IMG/VR virus record: IMGVR_UViG_3300040811_001959
Direction: 5' to 3' (one strand)
DNA length: 64,000 nt
DNA from: a virus
Taxonomy: Duplodnaviria; Caudoviricetes
Below, piece after piece: positions 12,299 to 49,636 of the stretch. How positions within the stretch are numbered: position 1 is the first letter of the stretch; the number at the start of each line of letters is the position of its first letter. Below the pieces are notes generated by a model. It saw nothing but the letters and a program-made list of their open reading frames with translations. It made no database searches and had not been told where the DNA came from. Made by a program: the position numbers and the translations under genes.

Positions 12299-12568
12299 AT
12301 GGAAGATCAAATCCCTGAGTATGAATTAGATCCAGACACACAGGCACTCTTGCAGACAGTACTAGAACTGGCACTGATGAGCGCTAACCTACAGCTTGAT
12401 CCTAAGAACACACAGTCAGTAATGGACATAGTGTTCACCACCGCACATAGGTTTGGTATAGAGTTCGCCACGATCACACAGGAACCAAACACAGACCAAG
12501 CCGGAATAAACCTACAAGACTTACCTTTCGACATCCAAGTTACATTCATAGACAATATATCAGAATAG
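12299..12568 (+). CDS. hypothetical acidic protein
   Basis: TAAATA then AAGGAG RBS. Confidence 0.65.
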   Translation: MEDQIPEYELDPDTQALLQTVLELALMSANLQLDPKNTQSVMDIVFTTAHRFGIEFATITQEPNTDQAGINLQDLPFDIQVTFIDNISE

Positions 12569-12747
12569 GTCACCGCTGCTAGTCAAGTGCTAGCCAGTGG
12601 TCACCGCTGCTACGGTCTAGTGTTACACAGCGAACACTAATGGTCACCGCTGTTAAGGTCTAGTACACAACAGGATAGACCAATGGTCACCGCTGTTAAG
12701 GTCTAGTACTACACAGATACGGATAATGGTCACCGCTGTTAAGGTCT
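12568..12747 (+). repeat. five-copy interspaced repeat, 43-bp period
   Basis: GGTCACCGCTG at 12568, 12599, 12642, 12685, 12728; consensus AATGGTCACCGCTGTTAAGGTCTAGT with 17-nt variable spacers. Confidence 0.9.
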
Positions 12748-12770
12748 GCTAAATACCGAAAGGAGACACT

Positions 12771-12944
12771 ATGTACATAATACACATACCAGACAACCAA
12801 CAGATAGAACCAAAGCTTAGATCTACCTATAGTGCTGCATGTAAAGAGAAACAGAGCTTAGACCAGTTAGTAGGTAAACCCAGTGCAGTAATAGATCAAA
12901 TCGCAACTGTAAGATTTACAAACCAGGATACGAAAGATGAATAG
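12771..12944 (+). CDS. small hypothetical protein (not in ORF track)
   Basis: CTAAATA then AAGGAG RBS then ATG; 57 aa. Confidence 0.5.
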   Translation: MYIIHIPDNQQIEPKLRSTYSAACKEKQSLDQLVGKPSAVIDQIATVRFTNQDTKDE

Positions 12945-13257
12945 AGAAACATATACATATGCATGCAGCATTTGTAGCATTAACTTCATATGCTATATGT
13001 GATTGGTACTGTGAATAGTACCACGTGCAGTCGTTGAGACACAACCGTAGAGTCAGTGAAACCAGTCGAGAGACTGTCGACTACTGTAATAGACTCGAGT
13101 TTGCAAAGTGATCGAGTCGGTTTGCAAAGTGATGCATTGTGATGCATTATGGAGACAGAGTATTTAAACTATGCCTGTCACCACCATTCTCCACCTTTTT
13201 TCACCATTCTCAACCGTGCCTCTTTTTTCGTAAGAAAATTCACATTTAAATTACAAC

Positions 13258-13283
13258 AAAAGTTAGCAGATACTAACTTTTTT
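13258..13283. terminator. hairpin / possible bidirectional intrinsic terminator
   Basis: AAAAGTTAG-CAGATA-CTAACTTTT perfect 9-bp stem. Confidence 0.45.
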
Positions 13284-13299
13284 GGTTAGTAGATACTAA

Positions 13300-13459
13300 A
13301 TTTGCATATAACTATATGTGCATATATGCATATGTGCATATACAAATATTTGTATATTTTTACATTTGTATATTTAAATATTTGTTTATTTAGATATTTG
13401 TATATTTTTACATTTATATATTTAAATATTTGCATATTTAGATATTTATATATGCAAAT
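13300..13459. repeat. very AT-rich low-complexity block with a ~48-bp tandem duplication, bounded by 11-bp inverted repeats
   Basis: ATTTGCATATA (13300-13310) / TATATGCAAAT (13449-13459); unit ATATTTGTATATTTTTACATTTRTATATTTAAATATTTG..ATTTAG occurs twice. Confidence 0.8.
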
Positions 13460-13497
13460 CCTCACCTGTTTTCACCCCTACCCCAAATTCCACCATA

Positions 13498-13678
13498 AAC
13501 TGAATATTATGTTTTCCAAATCTGGTTGGAACTGAATATTATGTTTTCCTAATTTGCCCTAGCACGGTTCTTGCATACCGTTGGAACTGAATATTATGTT
13601 TTCCTAATTGGGTTGGAACTGAATATTATGTTTTCCAAATCTCCGTCAGATTGAAACTGAATATTATGTTTTCCTAAT
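13498..13678 (+). repeat. five 24-bp iteron-like direct repeats
   Basis: AACTGAATATTATGTTTTCCWAAT at 13498, 13530, 13585, 13617, 13655. Confidence 0.92.
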
Positions 13679-13709
13679 CCAGGCGGAGGGGTGGTGAGAT
13701 GGACCTTGA

Positions 13710-13773
13710 AAAAAGATCCGTAATGATCACAGTGACTTAGCAGTAAGTCACTGATATTGCACGGGATCATTTC
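13710..13773. promoter_or_regulatory. palindromic upstream element, copy A
   Basis: AAAAAGATCC-N10-CAGTGACTTA-GCAG-TAAGTCACTG-N10-GGATCATTT. Confidence 0.75.
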
Positions 13774-13775
13774 CG

Positions 13776-13804
13776 TTGCAATTCTCACCCCGTGCTAGTA
13801 TACT
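13776..13804 (+). promoter_or_regulatory. early promoter P1
   Basis: TTGCAA-17-TATACT followed by the ACAGTGAGCGA leader. Confidence 0.75.
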
Positions 13805-13860
13805 ATATGGACAGTGAGCGAAGGGCTTGCTTTTATACGCAACACAAACGGAGATACTTG

Positions 13861-14352
13861 ATGTCCAAGCAAAGAACATTCTTAAGAGACGTGATCATTC
13901 CTACTCTTCCAGAACTGTTTCCTACAGAAGAGTCCCGTGAATATGCAATGAAAAATCCGCATATATATAATGTAGAACATCTCGTAGAAATATGCCTAGC
14001 CAAGGTTGGCGGCTACGAGTTTGTAGATGAAGAAGGATATGACTTTACAGACTATTCAGACTCAAAGACTACCAGTATAAATGAGAAAACTCTTGTGCTT
14101 ACGATATGCTCAGTAGAAAATAAGATCGGTAGTCTCCGTATTTGTGCCTACAATCCAATCGCAGATCGCATTGACTTTTTCTACATGACACAGAGTCAAT
14201 TGAGGGCGACTGAGGTTGCTTGTTGGGGGAAGAACAGTCATAAGACTCGTATACTTGCTAGATGGAACGCAGGTCGAGACAATTATAATTCTTTTGAAAA
14301 GTTCCGTGTAGACTCATTTGAAACTCTTGCAAAGAAAGGGACACTGAAATGA
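13861..14352 (+). CDS. hypothetical early protein
   Basis: GGAG RBS; start MSKQR downstream of P1. Confidence 0.7.
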   Translation: MSKQRTFLRDVIIPTLPELFPTEESREYAMKNPHIYNVEHLVEICLAKVGGYEFVDEEGYDFTDYSDSKTTSINEKTLVLTICSVENKIGSLRICAYNPIADRIDFFYMTQSQLRATEVACWGKNSHKTRILARWNAGRDNYNSFEKFRVDSFETLAKKGTLK

Positions 14353-14534
14353 TTCCGAATACAGTAAAGAATGACATACTGAATAAGCAGGAACAGGAGC
14401 TAGAACGGAATGCTCAGATCGCACGGATTAAGATCGTAGAACAAAAGATACGAGATTGGGACGTTCCCGGTTTGGGATTTGCGGGACTGAGGAGACTTGA
14501 ACGACAATTGCAAGACCTAAAAGGCTCGGTTTGA
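14349..14534 (+). CDS. small hypothetical early protein
   Basis: ATGA coupling. Confidence 0.55.
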   Translation: MIPNTVKNDILNKQEQELERNAQIARIKIVEQKIRDWDVPGLGFAGLRRLERQLQDLKGSV

Positions 14535-14581
14535 GGAGACGACGAACAGCATCCACCGAGGGGCGATTTACCTAACAATAT

Positions 14582-14656
14582 CAGTAGGTTAGTGCTAAGT
14601 CACTGTGATCACAAGGGATCTTTTTTGTTGACTTTCCCAGTTCGATCAACTATACT
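14582..14656 (+). promoter_or_regulatory. palindromic element copy B + early promoter P2
   Basis: CAGTAGGTTA-GTGC-TAAGTCACTG-N10-GGATCTTTTT, then TTGACT(14628)-17-TATACT. Confidence 0.8.
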
Positions 14657-14709
14657 ATTAAGACAGTGAGCGAACAGCTCCAATTGCAAACTCCACACTA
14701 GGAGACTCC

Positions 14710-14940
14710 ATGAACAGTTTCACCCGCTCAGCCCATCCATACTACACAGACCGAGACTTCTGCGACAAGCTCACACTATACCGGACAGCCTGGAGTACGG
14801 TACACGAGACCTATGTAGGACTCCGTGCGGTATGGCGTGATCCTAACAATGTTCCTGTCATCTCAGCCCATGTGCTAGGCACTCCGGACGAAGAGACACA
14901 TCTGTTCCGTCCAACTGAGTTGATCAACTACGTCCTCTAA
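14710..14940 (+). CDS. small hypothetical early protein
   Basis: AGGAG RBS after P2. Confidence 0.65.
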   Translation: MNSFTRSAHPYYTDRDFCDKLTLYRTAWSTVHETYVGLRAVWRDPNNVPVISAHVLGTPDEETHLFRPTELINYVL

Positions 14941-14958
14941 AAAAAATAAAAAAAATGG

Positions 14959-14987
14959 TTGACTTCCGAAAGGGAGTCAGCTATACT
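14959..14987 (+). promoter_or_regulatory. early promoter P3
   Basis: A-tract, TTGACT-17-TATACT. Confidence 0.85.
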
Positions 14988-15043
14988 ATTAATACAGTGA
15001 GTGAACGGCTCACGCTTCCAATAACTCCTGCTACGGAGATCCA

Positions 15044-15364
15044 ATGTCAGAACTATCCAATACAGTTTACTCATTCTGCTCAGATCCCAGTCACGGTTGG
15101 CTAGCAGTTCCGCAGGCTGATCTCGCCCGTGTAGGTCTTTCCGCTGCAGACCTGTCAACATTCAGCTTTTGGGACTCAGAATACTTCTACTTAGAAGAGG
15201 ACATGGACTATGCGATCTTCTGTCGTGCCTTTGAGCGCACCGTAGGACACGCTCCAAACGTGAGATTTATTCCCTCAACAAGAGGCAATCACCCAATCCG
15301 CCGCAAGAACCGCAACATTATTGGTTGTACAGACAGTTCAAAACTCATCTCTCTAATGGTATAA
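15044..15364 (+). CDS. hypothetical early protein
   Basis: GGAG RBS; SDPSHGWLAVP...FYLEEDMD pattern. Confidence 0.7.
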   Translation: MSELSNTVYSFCSDPSHGWLAVPQADLARVGLSAADLSTFSFWDSEYFYLEEDMDYAIFCRAFERTVGHAPNVRFIPSTRGNHPIRRKNRNIIGCTDSSKLISLMV

Positions 15365-15702
15365 AATGGAAGTAGAAGCAATCGTAAGGATCACGTTGAA
15401 GGAAGGATATGACCTTTCAACCCCAGATCGCGTCATAGAAGTGCTTAATGAAATGGATTATGAGTTTACACACGAGGCGATCGAAGACACTGAAATCGTA
15501 GACATCAATTGGGAGATTGACTGATGACATATCGGGAAGCAGATCAGCGACTAACCGCAATCCTAGACCGGCGGGTTAAAGAGTGTACAGAAAACGAAGA
15601 CTTACAGAACAGTCATTCGTATAAGCTAGGTGTGTTAATGAGTATGATGTCTTGTGTACTAACCGACAGTCAATTACGGAAGTTTGAACAAGGAGTGCTC
15701 TA

Positions 15703-15797
15703 AAAAAGATCCTTAACAAGATCAGTGACTTACAGCTAAGTCACTGATCCTACAGGGAATCATTTTTGTTGATTTTTTTGCCCCAATCAACTATACT
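15703..15797 (+). promoter_or_regulatory. palindromic element copy C + early promoter P4
   Basis: GATCAGTGACTTA-CAGC-TAAGTCACTGATC perfect 13-bp arms, then TTGATT(15769)-17-TATACT. Confidence 0.82.
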
Positions 15798-15850
15798 ATT
15801 TAGACACTGAGCGACAAGCTCCAATTGCAAACTCCACGCACGGAGACAGT

Positions 15851-16036
15851 ATGAAAGCAGTCATTAAGTTCCGCCCAAAAGCAGAGAAGCGCTCACGAAA
15901 CTTGGATGCCGATCTGCGTACAGGTCAGGTCTACCTACTAGAGGGCAGGACTGTTGAGGAGACTATGAAGTCAGCTCGTCTAAACAATCGTCGCTACGAA
16001 ATGATCGGAGGCAAGAAATTTTTGGTAGTCAGCTAA
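15851..16036 (+). CDS. small basic early protein
   Basis: GGAG RBS after P4. Confidence 0.6.
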   Translation: MKAVIKFRPKAEKRSRNLDADLRTGQVYLLEGRTVEETMKSARLNNRRYEMIGGKKFLVVS

Positions 16037-16044
16037 AAAAAAGG

Positions 16045-16073
16045 TTGACGGCAGGGCCTCGCCCTGCTATACT
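16045..16073 (+). promoter_or_regulatory. early promoter P5
   Basis: TTGACG-GCAGGGCCTCGCCCTGC-TATACT. Confidence 0.85.
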
Positions 16074-16127
16074 ATTAAGACAGTGAGCGAACAGCTCTTC
16101 CTTCCAAAACTCCAACCGGGAGATCCA

Positions 16128-16334
16128 ATGTCAGATACACGAAAAGCCACTAACCGACTGCTAGAACTAGTAGGCGACGGACTGCTAGATCAGTATCAGG
16201 TAATCCTAGCCTGCGTAAAGTATATGAGCGAGGACGATGTTGCAGACATGTGTCACCTAAACGAGTTTTTTGAGCAGGAGGACGAGGACCTGCTGGACGA
16301 CTTCAACTATGCGGGCAGTCGTCATCATTATTAA
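16128..16334 (+). CDS. small acidic early protein
   Basis: GGGAG RBS; start MSDTRK. Confidence 0.6.
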   Translation: MSDTRKATNRLLELVGDGLLDQYQVILACVKYMSEDDVADMCHLNEFFEQEDEDLLDDFNYAGSRHHY

Positions 16335-16343
16335 AAAAAAAGG

Positions 16344-16372
16344 TTGACACGAGGCGTTCGGCCTGCTATACT
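16344..16372 (+). promoter_or_regulatory. early promoter P6
   Basis: TTGACA-17-TATACT. Confidence 0.85.
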
Positions 16373-16427
16373 ATTAAGACAGTGAGCGACAAGCTTGCAT
16401 TTTTCCAATCTACGCTAAGAGGGCACA

Positions 16428-16805
16428 ATGGCAACAAGAGCAAGAATTGCATACCGCTACACAGACGGATCATATGTTTCTGCTTATCATCATTGGGACG
16501 GCTATTTAGACGGCTTAGGTCTTCTGTTAACAGAACACTATACAGATCCTAAACTAATTGAGAAATGCATACAGAAAGGCAACGCTTCTACATGGACTCC
16601 AGAGCCTGAGAACAATAATTACTATCACAACGAGCGTTGTATGACACATGCCGACACAAAGGCACTAATGGAAGACGCTTGGAACATGGATGAGGAATAT
16701 CTTTACGTATACTCAGAAAAACTGCAAGGTTGGAGTGTACGATTCCGCAACGGAGATACGACACGGATCTCAGCTGAAAGTATTTTGTCAGCAAGAGAAA
16801 AATAA
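16428..16805 (+). CDS. conserved hypothetical phage protein
   Basis: MATRARI...SAYHHWDGY motif recurrent in large-phage early regions. Confidence 0.7.
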   Translation: MATRARIAYRYTDGSYVSAYHHWDGYLDGLGLLLTEHYTDPKLIEKCIQKGNASTWTPEPENNNYYHNERCMTHADTKALMEDAWNMDEEYLYVYSEKLQGWSVRFRNGDTTRISAESILSAREK

Positions 16806-16808
16806 AGG

Positions 16809-16837
16809 TTGACGGCAGGGCCTCGCCCTGCTATACT
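16809..16837 (+). promoter_or_regulatory. early promoter P7 (identical core to P5)
   Basis: TTGACG-GCAGGGCCTCGCCCTGC-TATACT. Confidence 0.85.
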
Positions 16838-16892
16838 ATTAAAACATTGAGCGAGTCAGCTCACTTTTCCAAACTTGCACTAAGGACACACA

Positions 16893-17897
16893 ATGACACA
16901 GGTCAAAATTGTCGAAGGAACTTACAACGTTCGTGGAACTGATACATCTGTTGCAGGTATGATCTTTACGCTTGTAGAGGACTTCAAGCTTGGTGTTAAT
17001 GGCGGATATATTACAATTGACGGCAGCAAGACAGTAGGCTTTCCTGATCGTAACCTTAAGATCAAAATGGTAGGACCTCACTGTAGAGAACTGCTTGACG
17101 AAACTGTTTCTGTTAACAGTCGCAAAGAAACTGATGAGGAGACTATCGAAAGACTGCGAGAGCGATTTGACATGTTAGAGGACATGACACGAGCATGCAA
17201 GAAGGGCGATGTACGTGCAATGATCGTGTCAGGTCCTCCGGGAGTAGGCAAGTCACACGGTGTTGAGAAAGTACTTGCAAAGCATGATATGATCACAACG
17301 CTTGCGAATACTGCTCCTAAATACGTAATCGTAAAAGGTGCAATGTCGCCTTTAGGTCTATACATGAAACTGTACAACTATTCTGCTAAAGATAATGTTG
17401 TAGTTTTTGATGACTGTGACAGCATCTTCCAGGATGAACTTAGTCTTAACATCTTAAAAGCTGCATTAGATAGCAAGAAGACACGTAAGATCTTTTGGAA
17501 TACCGACAGTCGTGCGCTTCGTTCGGAAGGTATTCCAGATCAGTTCGAGTTTAAAGGCTCTGCAGTATTCATTACTAATCTAAAGTTTGAGAAAGTCAAA
17601 GGCAAATTGCGTGAGCATTTAGAAGCATTAGAGTCACGCTGTCACTACATCGACCTAACTATCGATACAGATAGAGAGAAGATGTTACGTATCAAGCAGA
17701 TCGTATCAGACGGCATGCTCGACGAATATGCATTTGAAGACGACACTGCAGAGGAGATACTAGACTTCGTGTCAATTAATAAAGATCGCTTGAGAGAACT
17801 CAGTCTTCGGACTGTGCTTAAGATTGCAGATCTTGCAAAAGCTTTTCCAACCAAATGGGAAGCTATGGCAGAGAATACGGTGATGCGTCGAGCCTAA
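16893..17897 (+). CDS. AAA+ ATPase
   Basis: Walker A GPPGVGKS, Walker B VVVFDD, sensor FITN, ALESR arginine finger. Confidence 0.88.
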   Translation: MTQVKIVEGTYNVRGTDTSVAGMIFTLVEDFKLGVNGGYITIDGSKTVGFPDRNLKIKMVGPHCRELLDETVSVNSRKETDEETIERLRERFDMLEDMTRACKKGDVRAMIVSGPPGVGKSHGVEKVLAKHDMITTLANTAPKYVIVKGAMSPLGLYMKLYNYSAKDNVVVFDDCDSIFQDELSLNILKAALDSKKTRKIFWNTDSRALRSEGIPDQFEFKGSAVFITNLKFEKVKGKLREHLEALESRCHYIDLTIDTDREKMLRIKQIVSDGMLDEYAFEDDTAEEILDFVSINKDRLRELSLRTVLKIADLAKAFPTKWEAMAENTVMRRA

Positions 17898-17972
17898 GCC
17901 CTCGGGCTCCGCATTGCACGGGCGGCAGTGCCCCTCAGCTGTCGCCCCAGAACAAAAAAAATAAAAAAAAGG

Positions 17973-18001
17973 TTGACGCGAGCACAAGGCTTTGCTATAC
18001 T
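17973..18001 (+). promoter_or_regulatory. early promoter P8
   Basis: A-tract, TTGACG-17-TATACT. Confidence 0.85.
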
Positions 18002-18057
18002 ATTAATACAGTGAGCGACAAGCTCATCCTTCCAATAACTCCACATAGGAGATCACA

Positions 18058-19038
18058 ATGGCAGCAAGACGCAAGACAATCGACTTAGACACTTTCGTCA
18101 ACTGGTGCAACGACAGGCTCGCCAAGAGCAATTTCCAAGAACAAGACAGCACAGAAGGTGTTGGCTATCGCAAGGGCATTATGACAGCCGTTGAGGAGGC
18201 GCTGTTCAGTGCCAATCGCTACCAAGGCTATCGCGCCATCCGTCCACACGAAGCAGAAGTGAAGGACGGCTGGGGATACGACGATGCGACTGGTGAGTGG
18301 AACGATGACACTCGTCGTGTGTATTTCATCTAATCTAAAACTAAGGAGAATTATGATCGAAGACAACCGTACCAGCAAAGATATCCGCAAGGAGATCAAG
18401 CAATTGAAAAAGCTTGTGAAGGTAAAGCAGGAACTGTTAGGCATCGTGCTGATGCAGGAAGAGCTAAGCCAGATCAAACTACAGAAGACTTTTGACGACG
18501 CCGGTAACTAATTAATTTAATCTAAGGAGCACGACATGGCACAGGTAACCAAGCGAGTACAATCACTTTCACAGACAGTACAAGAAGTAGAAGAAGACAT
18601 CTGCTGGCTGCAGCGACATGCAGTGAACGGCATCGTACCGCAGAAGGTACAGAAAGAACTGCAGGACCTGCAGCGGACACGAGCTAGCCTGATTGAACGA
18701 CAAACAGAGCTGGCGTAAACGGTTCCTTATAAGGCAAGGGTTTGGTTTGGTAGAGCCTGGAGTGACCCTTGCCGCCTCCACCACTACACTTCACGACGAG
18801 AATCACAATGACAACGATCCAGAAACGATACAATAAACTAAGACAGATGTCAATCCAGGAATTAGAAACAGAACGATCCAGCCTGTATGACGCGATGGCA
18901 GAAGAAGAAGCAGATCCCTACGGAGGATGGGGTAGCTATCACCACGACAGCCTAAGCCTAGATGTGTCAATTGTAGAAGAGGTGCTGGACGAAAAAAAGA
19001 AAGCCAACAAGATCAATGACTTAGCGTTAACCTGCTGA
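18058..19038 (+). CDS. run of four small early ORFs (18058-18333, 18353-18511, 18536-18718, 18808-19038)
   Basis: same strand downstream of P8; the first three have AGGAG RBS. Confidence 0.6.
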
Positions 19039-19088
19039 TATCGCAAGAGATCTTTTCTGTTGATTTTTTGGACCGGATCAGATATACT
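19014..19088 (+). promoter_or_regulatory. palindromic element copy D + early promoter P9
   Basis: CAATGACTTA-GCGT-TAACCTGCTG-N10-AGATCTTTT, then TTGATT(19060)-17-TATACT. Confidence 0.72.
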
Positions 19089-19131
19089 ATATGCATAGTG
19101 AATGATACCACAACGCCAACTAGGAGCGAAC

Positions 19132-19326
19132 ATGACACGAGAGCAGATCCAACAAGCAACACAGGCATTCCTTGCAAACGGCGGAGAGATCCAGAAGATG
19201 CCAGAGCGCAAATCCTACACCTGGGCTGACATCAGCAACATGCTGGAGCGGATACTAGATCAGGTAGACGGCATTGATGACGAAGTTGAAGCCGGAGGAT
19301 ATGACGAAGCTGCCGTAGGAATTTGA
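19132..19326 (+). CDS. small acidic early protein
   Basis: AGGAG RBS; start MTREQ. Confidence 0.6.
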   Translation: MTREQIQQATQAFLANGGEIQKMPERKSYTWADISNMLERILDQVDGIDDEVEAGGYDEAAVGI

Positions 19327-19345
19327 AAATAATTTAAAAAAATGG

Positions 19346-19374
19346 TTGACTTCTCCGCAGGAGTCAACTATACT
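19346..19374 (+). promoter_or_regulatory. early promoter P10
   Basis: TTGACT-17-TATACT. Confidence 0.85.
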
Positions 19375-19428
19375 GTATAGACACTGAGCGAACAGCTCCA
19401 CTCCACTCACTCCACACTAGGAGATCAC

Positions 19429-19894
19429 ATGCCACAGTCAGTCTACCACATCCAATTACAAGAGATCCAAGAAGAGATTGATATGCTGAACGAAGCCTGC
19501 ACTAGGCCTGAAGAAGACGAGTTCCAGATCATGCGTTGGAGAGATCGCATCTTTGATCTGGAGCAGGAGCAGATCTTAATTGAGCAGCGACATGCAGAGC
19601 TGGATCAGATGGACGACGACTACGCCTTGTTTGAAGACTTCATCGAATTCGTTTAATCACTACCAAGGAGACACCATGAGTGTAGCAGCCAACATGAACT
19701 TCATCTGGGGCGCCATTGCCAACAAGAGCCGCACAATGATCCAAACAGATCAGGGTCCGATGCGGATCTTCTCCATCCGCACCAAGGCAGGAGTGGATAT
19801 GGAGATCATGGCCGTCAACAATCAATCCAACAACCACACCTTCATCACAGTCACTCCAGACAATTCGGGTGACATCAGATCACGACTTTTTTAA
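19429..19894 (+). CDS. two small early ORFs (19429-19656, 19676-19894)
   Basis: AGGAG RBS before each. Confidence 0.6.
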
Positions 19895-19902
19895 AAAAAT
19901 AG

Positions 19903-19931
19903 TTGACTTATCCAAGCTCGTTTGCTATACT
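19903..19931 (+). promoter_or_regulatory. early promoter P11
   Basis: TTGACT-17-TATACT. Confidence 0.85.
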
Positions 19932-19987
19932 ATATAGACAGTGAGCGAACGAGCTCCATTTCCAATAACTCCAACAGAGAGTTCCAA

Positions 19988-20206
19988 ATGTTGCAAGCAA
20001 TCCGATCAGCTTCAGGCCTAATCTCAGTCCTATTCTTCTTCATCGCAGTAGGCAGTGACAATTGGCCCGCCACACTCTGTGCCGCAGCCATAGCGTTCTT
20101 GTTCGCAGTCGTAGAATATGAAGAAGCAAAAGAACTGGGCTTCTTCAACAGACCCACGGCGCAAAAGAAAATTTCCCTACAAAATCAACAGGTTGCACGT
20201 AAATAA
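19988..20206 (+). CDS. small two-TM membrane protein
   Basis: two hydrophobic helices; start MLQAIR. Confidence 0.55.
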   Translation: MLQAIRSASGLISVLFFFIAVGSDNWPATLCAAAIAFLFAVVEYEEAKELGFFNRPTAQKKISLQNQQVARK

Positions 20207-20260
20207 CTGAAATTGCATAGGATCTTTTTTGTTGCTTTTTTTATGCTAGTAAACTATACT
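20186..20260 (+). promoter_or_regulatory. degenerate palindromic element copy E + early promoter P12
   Basis: CAACAGGTTG-CACG-TAAATAACTG-N10-GGATCTTTTT, then TTGCTT(20232)-17-TATACT. Confidence 0.65.
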
Positions 20261-20316
20261 ATTAAAACAGTGCAGCAAAGCTTGCTGCGTTTTTTAAATT
20301 GCATTAGGAGTTTACT

Positions 20317-49516: not shown

Positions 49517-49636
49517 AATATGCCTTTCTATAAATTGTTAAATGTGCCTTAGCTGTTGCCTTAAATGTGTAGCACAAACATATATGCTACACGAGTATTT
49601 ATCAAATGTCAATAATTAAATTACTGATTTGATAGA

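Follow-up and report, generated by a model that had tools for sequence, protein, structure and literature searches.

Why should five of the twelve early promoters in one stretch of phage DNA carry an inverted repeat at one and the same distance, and what might read it? The stretch in question (IMG/VR record IMGVR_UViG_3300040811_001959; 64,000 nucleotides, referred to throughout as the window) is a 64-kb, 37% GC fragment of an uncultured marine/marsh T4-like jumbo phage. On its plus strand, between 13.7 and 20.3 kb, lie twelve sigma70-type early promoters with the pattern TTGnnn-N17-TATACT; a conserved leader comes after each of them, and then small genes, mostly without family. Upstream of five of the twelve stands a 24-bp inverted repeat which ends exactly 22 bp before the -35 hexamer and is the core of a 64-bp palindromic element. 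The element is best explained as a protein-binding module at a fixed upstream position, which would define an activator-dependent class of host-sigma70-type early promoters; its activating effect is something we infer. Each arm of the core holds a 13-bp candidate IHF site, and the proposal that two such IHF-family sites, back to back, bend the DNA and thereby activate a second class of promoters is our preferred reading, at about even odds.

A first-pass annotation of the window had placed five copies of the element (A to E) with their centres at 13741.5, 14593.5, 15734.5, 19025.5 and 20197.5, each 34.5 bp upstream of a -35 hexamer (starting at 13776, 14628, 15769, 19060 and 20232). The coordinates of the cores bear out these centres, and the distance holds in all five cases. 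Searching the window for the core with up to three mismatches gave three matches, where 0.01 would be expected; copies D and E are more degenerate, copy E having eight mismatches to the palindrome, yet both are in register. The left outer arm, AAAAAGATCC, is clear in copies A and C only, just as had been described, and occurs in about three quarters of the metagenomic variants introduced below. The placing of the centre at about -69.5 relative to the transcription start stands with some latitude: it rests on an inferred +1, and the starts of RNA-library contigs place the centre at about -68.5 to -69.5. These marsh metatranscriptome data are contigs and carry neither 5'/3' ends nor expression levels, so that differences in depth between the operons are given no weight; those of two studies (X1 and X4) start at 16843, 34 nt after the -35 start of the promoter at 16809, which is a weak hint for the transcription start. 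The elements and promoters are arranged as follows.

13709 to 13775, plus strand: element A, with A-tract and GATCC, core at 13730-13753 and right arm GGGATCATTTCCG
13744-13756, minus strand: perfect IHF-type 13-mer in the right arm of element A
13776 to 13804, plus strand: promoter A, TTGCAA-N17-TATACT
14561 to 14627, plus strand: element B, core at 14582-14605, with the flanks of element A in inverted order
14579-14591: perfect IHF-type 13-mer in the left arm of element B
14628 to 14656, plus strand: promoter B, TTGACT-N17-TATACT
15702 to 15768, plus strand: element C, core at 15723-15746, where the repeat is perfect and its arms lengthen to 13 bp; each of the two is GATCAGTGACTTA, with G in place of W
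15769 to 15797, plus strand: promoter C, TTGATT-N17-TATACT
18993 to 19059, plus strand: element D, core at 19014-19037, overlapping the 3' end of the upstream open reading frame (stop 19036-19038)
19028-19040, minus strand: perfect IHF-type 13-mer in the right arm of element D
19060 to 19088, plus strand: promoter D, TTGATT-N17-TATACT, driving the gene at 19102-19326, whose product has a SutA RNA-polymerase-binding domain (SutA-RBD)
20165 to 20231, plus strand: element E, degenerate core at 20186-20209, overlapping the stop of the upstream open reading frame (20204-20206)
20183-20195: perfect IHF-type 13-mer in the left arm of element E
20232 to 20260, plus strand: promoter E, TTGCTT-N17-TATACT
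14959 to 19931, plus strand: span of the seven element-free comparison promoters, with TTGAC and an A-tract, five of them with TGn; -35 starts at 14959, 16045, 16344, 16809, 17973, 19346 and 19903

Whether this spacing is kept in related phages had been set beforehand as a test. Relatives were retrieved by a pattern of -10 and leader, and hence blind to the palindrome, which yielded two IMG/VR contigs and, in metagenomes of marsh, estuarine and aquatic origin, 82 loci. The 82 loci contain 233 unique promoter contexts; a context within six mismatches of the core was counted as an element, and 62 unique elements (124 arms) were compared with 154 promoters lacking one. The spacing is kept: in every context with at most six mismatches to the core, 62 of 62, the gap to the -35 is exactly 22 bp, and the elements are spread over 12 promoter contexts with unrelated -35/-10 spacers. 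The spacer at the centre is likewise constant, at 4 bp in 41 of 41 strict pairs. When 451 kb of related DNA was searched in the reverse direction, for the element with up to two mismatches, a TATAC-type -10 stood at the fixed distance in 90 of 97 cases; among the remaining seven, three have a TATAAT or TATATT -10, one is cut off before the -10, two run off the end of the locus and one is unrelated AT-rich DNA. The element is thus almost never found without a promoter.

The copies share a common descent, and in every case the element has been passed on along with its -35, as would be expected if the element had no function of its own and had been carried along in the duplication of promoter cassettes. 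Against this, the 62 variants in their 12 contexts show many substitutions and no indel, conservation is strongly position-specific, and the deviations of the two arms are anticorrelated. Selection is therefore indicated, and we consider a functionless passenger highly improbable. An inverted repeat with a short centre, lying in a plastic region with variant joints (15057>15869 and 19354>19960/19977) between repeated promoter/leader sequences, could also be a recombination site, be it dif/Xer-like, another site-specific recombinase target or a homology patch for cassette shuffling. No two of the five copies in the window, however, have the same central 4 bp, of which 18 forms exist in total, so that strand exchange of the tyrosine-recombinase type between copies would be impossible; the joints map to leaders and promoters rather than to the palindrome, and an invariant distance to the -35 is unexpected for such a site. 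A role of this kind can be given very little credence.

The promoters that follow the element differ from the others. In the window their -35 hexamers are TTGCAA, TTGACT, TTGATT, TTGATT and TTGCTT, with a T-tract before each, so that the contrast drawn at first between promoters with T-tracts, four of the five departing from TTGAC, and those with TTGAC and A-tracts is borne out. It extends to the relatives: TTGAC is the -35 in 8 of 62 element promoters and in 143 of 154 others, while the TGn of an extended -10 occurs in none of the former and in 44 of the latter. The block before the -35 reads ATC(A/T)TTTYYG in element promoters and AAAAAAA(A/T)GG in the rest, the latter resembling the proximal UP subsite. 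Judged by sequence, element promoters are intrinsically weaker: their -35 is degenerate, they lack TGn, and a T-tract stands where a UP-like A-tract would be; weakness in these three respects is as expected of promoters needing help. The existence of a second promoter class is supported by the weak -35, the missing extended -10 and the exchange of A-tract for T-tract.

What might provide the help is suggested by the arms. From outside to centre, the consensus arm consists of A5-6, GATCC, about six variable bases and TATCAGTGACTTA, and its 13-mer fits the IHF consensus WATCAR-N4-TTR, pointing to the centre and with the A/T tract on its outer side. The consensus WATCARNNNNTTR is matched perfectly by 31 of 62 left and 45 of 62 right arms (76/124), and within one mismatch by 48 and 52 respectively (100/124); among the 154 element-free promoters perfect matches are close to zero. 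Of the 62 elements, 57 have one or two perfect arms and none has two poor ones. Conservation within the arm follows the same pattern: the C of ATCA and the central T of TTR are invariant (124/124 each), the A of ATCA is nearly so (122/124), and the N4 block is the least informative (0.66-1.14 bits); on either side it occurs in ten or more forms, including TGAC, TAGG, CAGG, TGAG, TGGT, GTAC, CTGT and GGAG. A T-to-A change at the central T of TTR lowers the affinity of IHF more than 100-fold (bioRxiv 10.1101/382655). Four perfect IHF-type arms lie in the window (A right, B left, D right and E left); compared with the core CAGTGACTTA, all 16 differences in the arms of B, D and E fall at R or N4 positions, and copy E, the worst palindrome, retains a perfect AATCAACAGGTTG. 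The arms found in the phage include TATCAGTGACTTA, TATCAATAGGTTA and AATCAACAGGTTG; read directly, the sites of lambda attP are TATCAATTTGTTG (H'), AATCAACTACTTA (H1) and TATCAATATATTA (H2).

Two half-site variants had been distinguished in the element. They are not two specificities, and differ only at positions which the IHF consensus leaves free. Of the dimeric or tetrameric factor proposed for it, described then as unidentified, the protein site is supported and the adjective is not needed, as the arms match the consensus of IHF: a concrete candidate would be two IHF-family dimers, four subunits in all. Binding by IHF and its geometry are here inferred from the letters of the DNA, and stand apart from the features described above.

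Several observations weigh against IHF as the factor. The A5-6 tract, present on both outer sides, starts 12 nt from the W, compared with 8 nt in lambda H'. The outer arms are conserved as well as the consensus is, with GAT on the promoter side in 62 of 62, and IHF alone does not explain this. Within the arm, G is preferred to A at the R of ATCAR (97 versus 24), and the N4 block prefers TGAC (63/124), perhaps because the arms have a common origin or because a specific protein reads them. In an AT-rich window the 13-mer consensus is loose (19 matches seen, 12 +/- 3.4 by chance), and the match to IHF was recognised after the fact. To our knowledge, known IHF sites are asymmetric singles and no paired inverted arrangement is known.

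Some of these points would be accounted for if the element were an operator to which a dedicated dimer or tetramer binds sequence-specifically, the resemblance to IHF being coincidental; such a regulator could be a delayed-early or 'middle-mode' activator of the phage, a shut-off repressor or a host regulator. Dimeric activators typically have sites with dyad symmetry, a GC-rich centre of constant length (here 4 bp) and a constant distance to the -35; the preference for TGAC in N4 and the strongly conserved, symmetric outer arms point the same way, and weak core promoters fit dependence on an activator. On the other hand, positions inside the arm are free to change even among the copies of a single genome, with ATCA and TT staying constant, and neither a helix-turn-helix nor a ribbon-helix-helix nor any other DNA-binding Pfam family was found in the 20 early and 64 other open reading frames of the window, which is part of the genome. 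Among 185,579 species genomes, the perfect palindrome gave four scattered matches in unrelated metagenome-assembled genomes, and therefore no sign of a host operator. A dedicated regulator is a serious competitor of the IHF reading, if on the whole less probable. That the palindrome is specifically the operator of a phage-encoded activator, bound as a tetramer over the 64 bp, is in our view unlikely; if true, the tetrameric activator would define a delayed-early or 'middle' mode of marine T4-like jumbo phages, acting from about -69, in contrast to T4 MotA/AsiA, which replaces the -35. No member of the MotA or AsiA families was found among the open reading frames of the window. CRP, FNR, LexA, Fis, CtrA, the MotA box and GANTC were compared by eye and dropped; at promoter E, a T4 MotA box is ruled out by a TTGCTT lying 2 bp too far from the -10.

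Sensitivity of the element to methylation, suggested by the presence of the Dam site in its arms, is not supported. GATC occurs in 39 of 62 left and 39 of 62 right arms (at -61 and -11), and is otherwise replaced by TATC, AATC or GTTC, so that the conserved portion is ATC. As a separate observation, GATC is over-represented between 13700 and 21700 of the window (71 seen, compared with 44 expected from a Markov model or 30 from base composition) and near expectation in the rest; it recurs 3-5 nt before the -10 in many promoters (+16/+18 from the -35 start).

A palindrome of this length may also act as RNA or DNA hairpin, and it was considered whether the element is the terminator or attenuator stem-loop of a cassette of the promoter-early stem-loop (PeSL) type, at which the preceding transcription unit would end. 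Strong folds are predicted for copies A and C (-26.6 and -26.0 kcal/mol; z about -5), copy C has the shape of A-tract, stem and U-tract, the elements sit at the 3' ends of genes, and in one subclass of PeSLs the stem-loop is located upstream of the -35 (PMC2839356). The other three copies (B, D and E), however, fold no better than shuffled sequence, the terminator scan flags none at the elements, and the U-run is missing from half of the right arms. Over the 62 variants, complementarity of the arms is not above that of column-preserving shuffles and is lower in two of three segments (variable core 157 versus 176 +/- 6; flanks 290 versus 290; outer arms 438 versus 479). RNA-library contigs bridge elements B and D, a weak point in view of possible DNA carry-over. 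An apparent covariation of the flanks (GTGATAT, GCAATAT and AACAATAT on both sides) was lost in a permutation test. With no covariation, and with folding limited to A and C, what is conserved in each arm is therefore its sequence as such and not its ability to pair; a hairpin function appears quite improbable.

Returning to IHF, in the crystal structure the lambda H' site is centred some 1 bp beyond the W of the consensus, on its outer side. On the phage element, two IHF-family dimers would bind back to back, about 15 bp either side of the dyad, which puts their centres close to -54 and -85, separated by some 30 bp or three helical turns and roughly in phase. The two sharp bends would fold the upstream DNA, including the distal A-tract, onto RNA polymerase, and this bending would make up for a poor -35 and for the lack of both TGn and a UP-like A-tract. 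Host IHF would be the simplest candidate, because the promoters are early and are read by the host polymerase at the start of infection; a phage HU/IHF-like protein is also possible. No HU/IHF family member (PF00216) was found in the open reading frames of the window or of the related records G001-G003, which cover part of the genome. A precedent is given by lambda pL, which is stimulated by IHF along with a distant UP element (Giladi 1998, as cited in PMC1784095).

The module has features in common with lambda pL-type IHF promoters: an IHF-consensus site upstream of a phage early promoter read by the host polymerase, A/T tracts beyond the bend with possible distal UP-like contacts, and a position fixed relative to the promoter. 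It differs from them in that two sites are predicted, inverted and abutting (TTR-N4-YAA) in a 64-bp palindrome, and in that each genome employs the module at five promoters. Further IHF-assisted promoters are the early promoter Pe of Mu and ilvPG of E. coli. The 13-mers have the same pattern as those of lambda attP H', H1 and H2, whereas the A-tract lies 4 bp further out and the role would be in transcription, that of the attP sites being in recombination. With a class I site for CRP (at -61.5/-71.5) the element shares two-fold symmetry, a centre near -69 and a weak -35; unlike it, the element has no TGTGA-N6-TCACA half-sites and is far longer (core 28 bp, 64 bp overall). What is new is a cis-regulatory module, a variant of IHF-assisted phage promoters and not a new kind of system.

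Resemblance to the PeSL cassettes known from T4-type phages (Arbiol 2010, PMC2839356; Comeau 2014, PMC4122927) lies in the region as a whole, with its many near-consensus sigma70 early promoters, AT-rich upstream and placed before small ORFans in a plastic region, its inverted repeats in and around promoters, and recombination between cassettes. The stem-loops of PeSLs are variable, G/C-rich and terminators, whereas the element is conserved, specific and mostly a poor hairpin; the upstream palindrome does not behave as the terminating stem-loop that a PeSL contains. In the element-free promoters (14959-19931), the -35/-10 spacers are themselves inverted repeats of unrelated sequence, often including the -35 hexamer (for example TTGACTTCC...GGGAGTCA and GCAGGGC...GCCCTGC), and this is the commonest PeSL subclass. 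The joint 15057>15869 was seen in RNA-library contigs of three runs, with 25 other letters between. The variant joints show that cassettes between repeated promoter/leader sequences have been replaced or lost, a shuffling like that of PeSLs.

IHF rises during slow growth in E. coli, and SutA is a slow-growth transcription factor. Were host IHF to drive some of the early genes, the output of these would rise and fall with the level of IHF in the host; as this subset includes the SutA-RBD gene, the takeover programme of the phage would, if this is true, be linked to host physiology. The paired inverted arrangement of IHF sites, if confirmed, would be a new promoter architecture. Should the factor instead be a new phage protein, the element would serve as bait to find it. 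Because uncultured marine/marsh jumbo phages are not yet open to infection studies, cis-elements for which a binding factor can be named offer a rare means of access to their gene control.

Among known phages, the closest match of the window's DnaB-type helicase is that of Pseudomonas phage PA5oct (about 51% identity), followed by those of phages of Agrobacterium, Sinorhizobium, Xanthomonas and Vibrio. The nearest phage relatives infect Proteobacteria, a phylum that possesses IHF, which is a point in favour of the IHF reading. Searches of phage records by megablast and blastn with the 6.8-kb region found no matching cultured phage, and a scan of IMG/VR with the right-arm pattern gave nine chance matches, all without palindrome. 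The nearest record, G001, corresponds to 38-59 kb of the window only.

Arms of this type also occur away from the early promoters. At 49600-49629 an isolated match to the paired IHF-type pattern (two mismatches) lies in an AT-rich intergenic gap with no such promoter; it is found also in G001 (three mismatches) and may be due to chance. In G003 (L015, 15760-15910), three 59-bp direct repeats occupy a gene-free, origin-like region before the first early promoter. Each holds a single arm, TATCAATGACTTA, with the same left flank, and an arm can therefore stand alone; the repeats are possibly IHF-type sites in a replication origin. The window itself has a long gene-free stretch directly before promoter A (12568-13700), with three repeat families: units of GGTCACCGCTG, a tandem repeat rich in AT, and a CTGAATATTATGTTTTCC unit present five times. 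The stretch has the look of an origin or of a genome end.

Among the early proteins encoded downstream of the promoters, no Pfam family was detected except AAA and SutA-RBD. The latter is found in the 74-residue product of 19102-19326 (plus strand), driven by promoter D (PF20661; E 8.6e-9; 35.1 bits, the cut-off being 29.3), which on this domain match may be a phage-encoded modulator of the host RNA polymerase. A search of the ESM Atlas with this protein returned viral clusters with the same SutA domain and gave no clue to the host. The largest early gene (16893-17897, plus strand) encodes 334 residues with weak AAA-ATPase matches and belongs to phrog_1250, its homologues being found in PA5oct-like, Vibrio and Cronobacter phages. 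Finally, the leader of promoter E contains, just after the start site (20269-20300, plus strand), a 10-bp hairpin followed by T6, which is flagged by the terminator scan and may be an attenuator.

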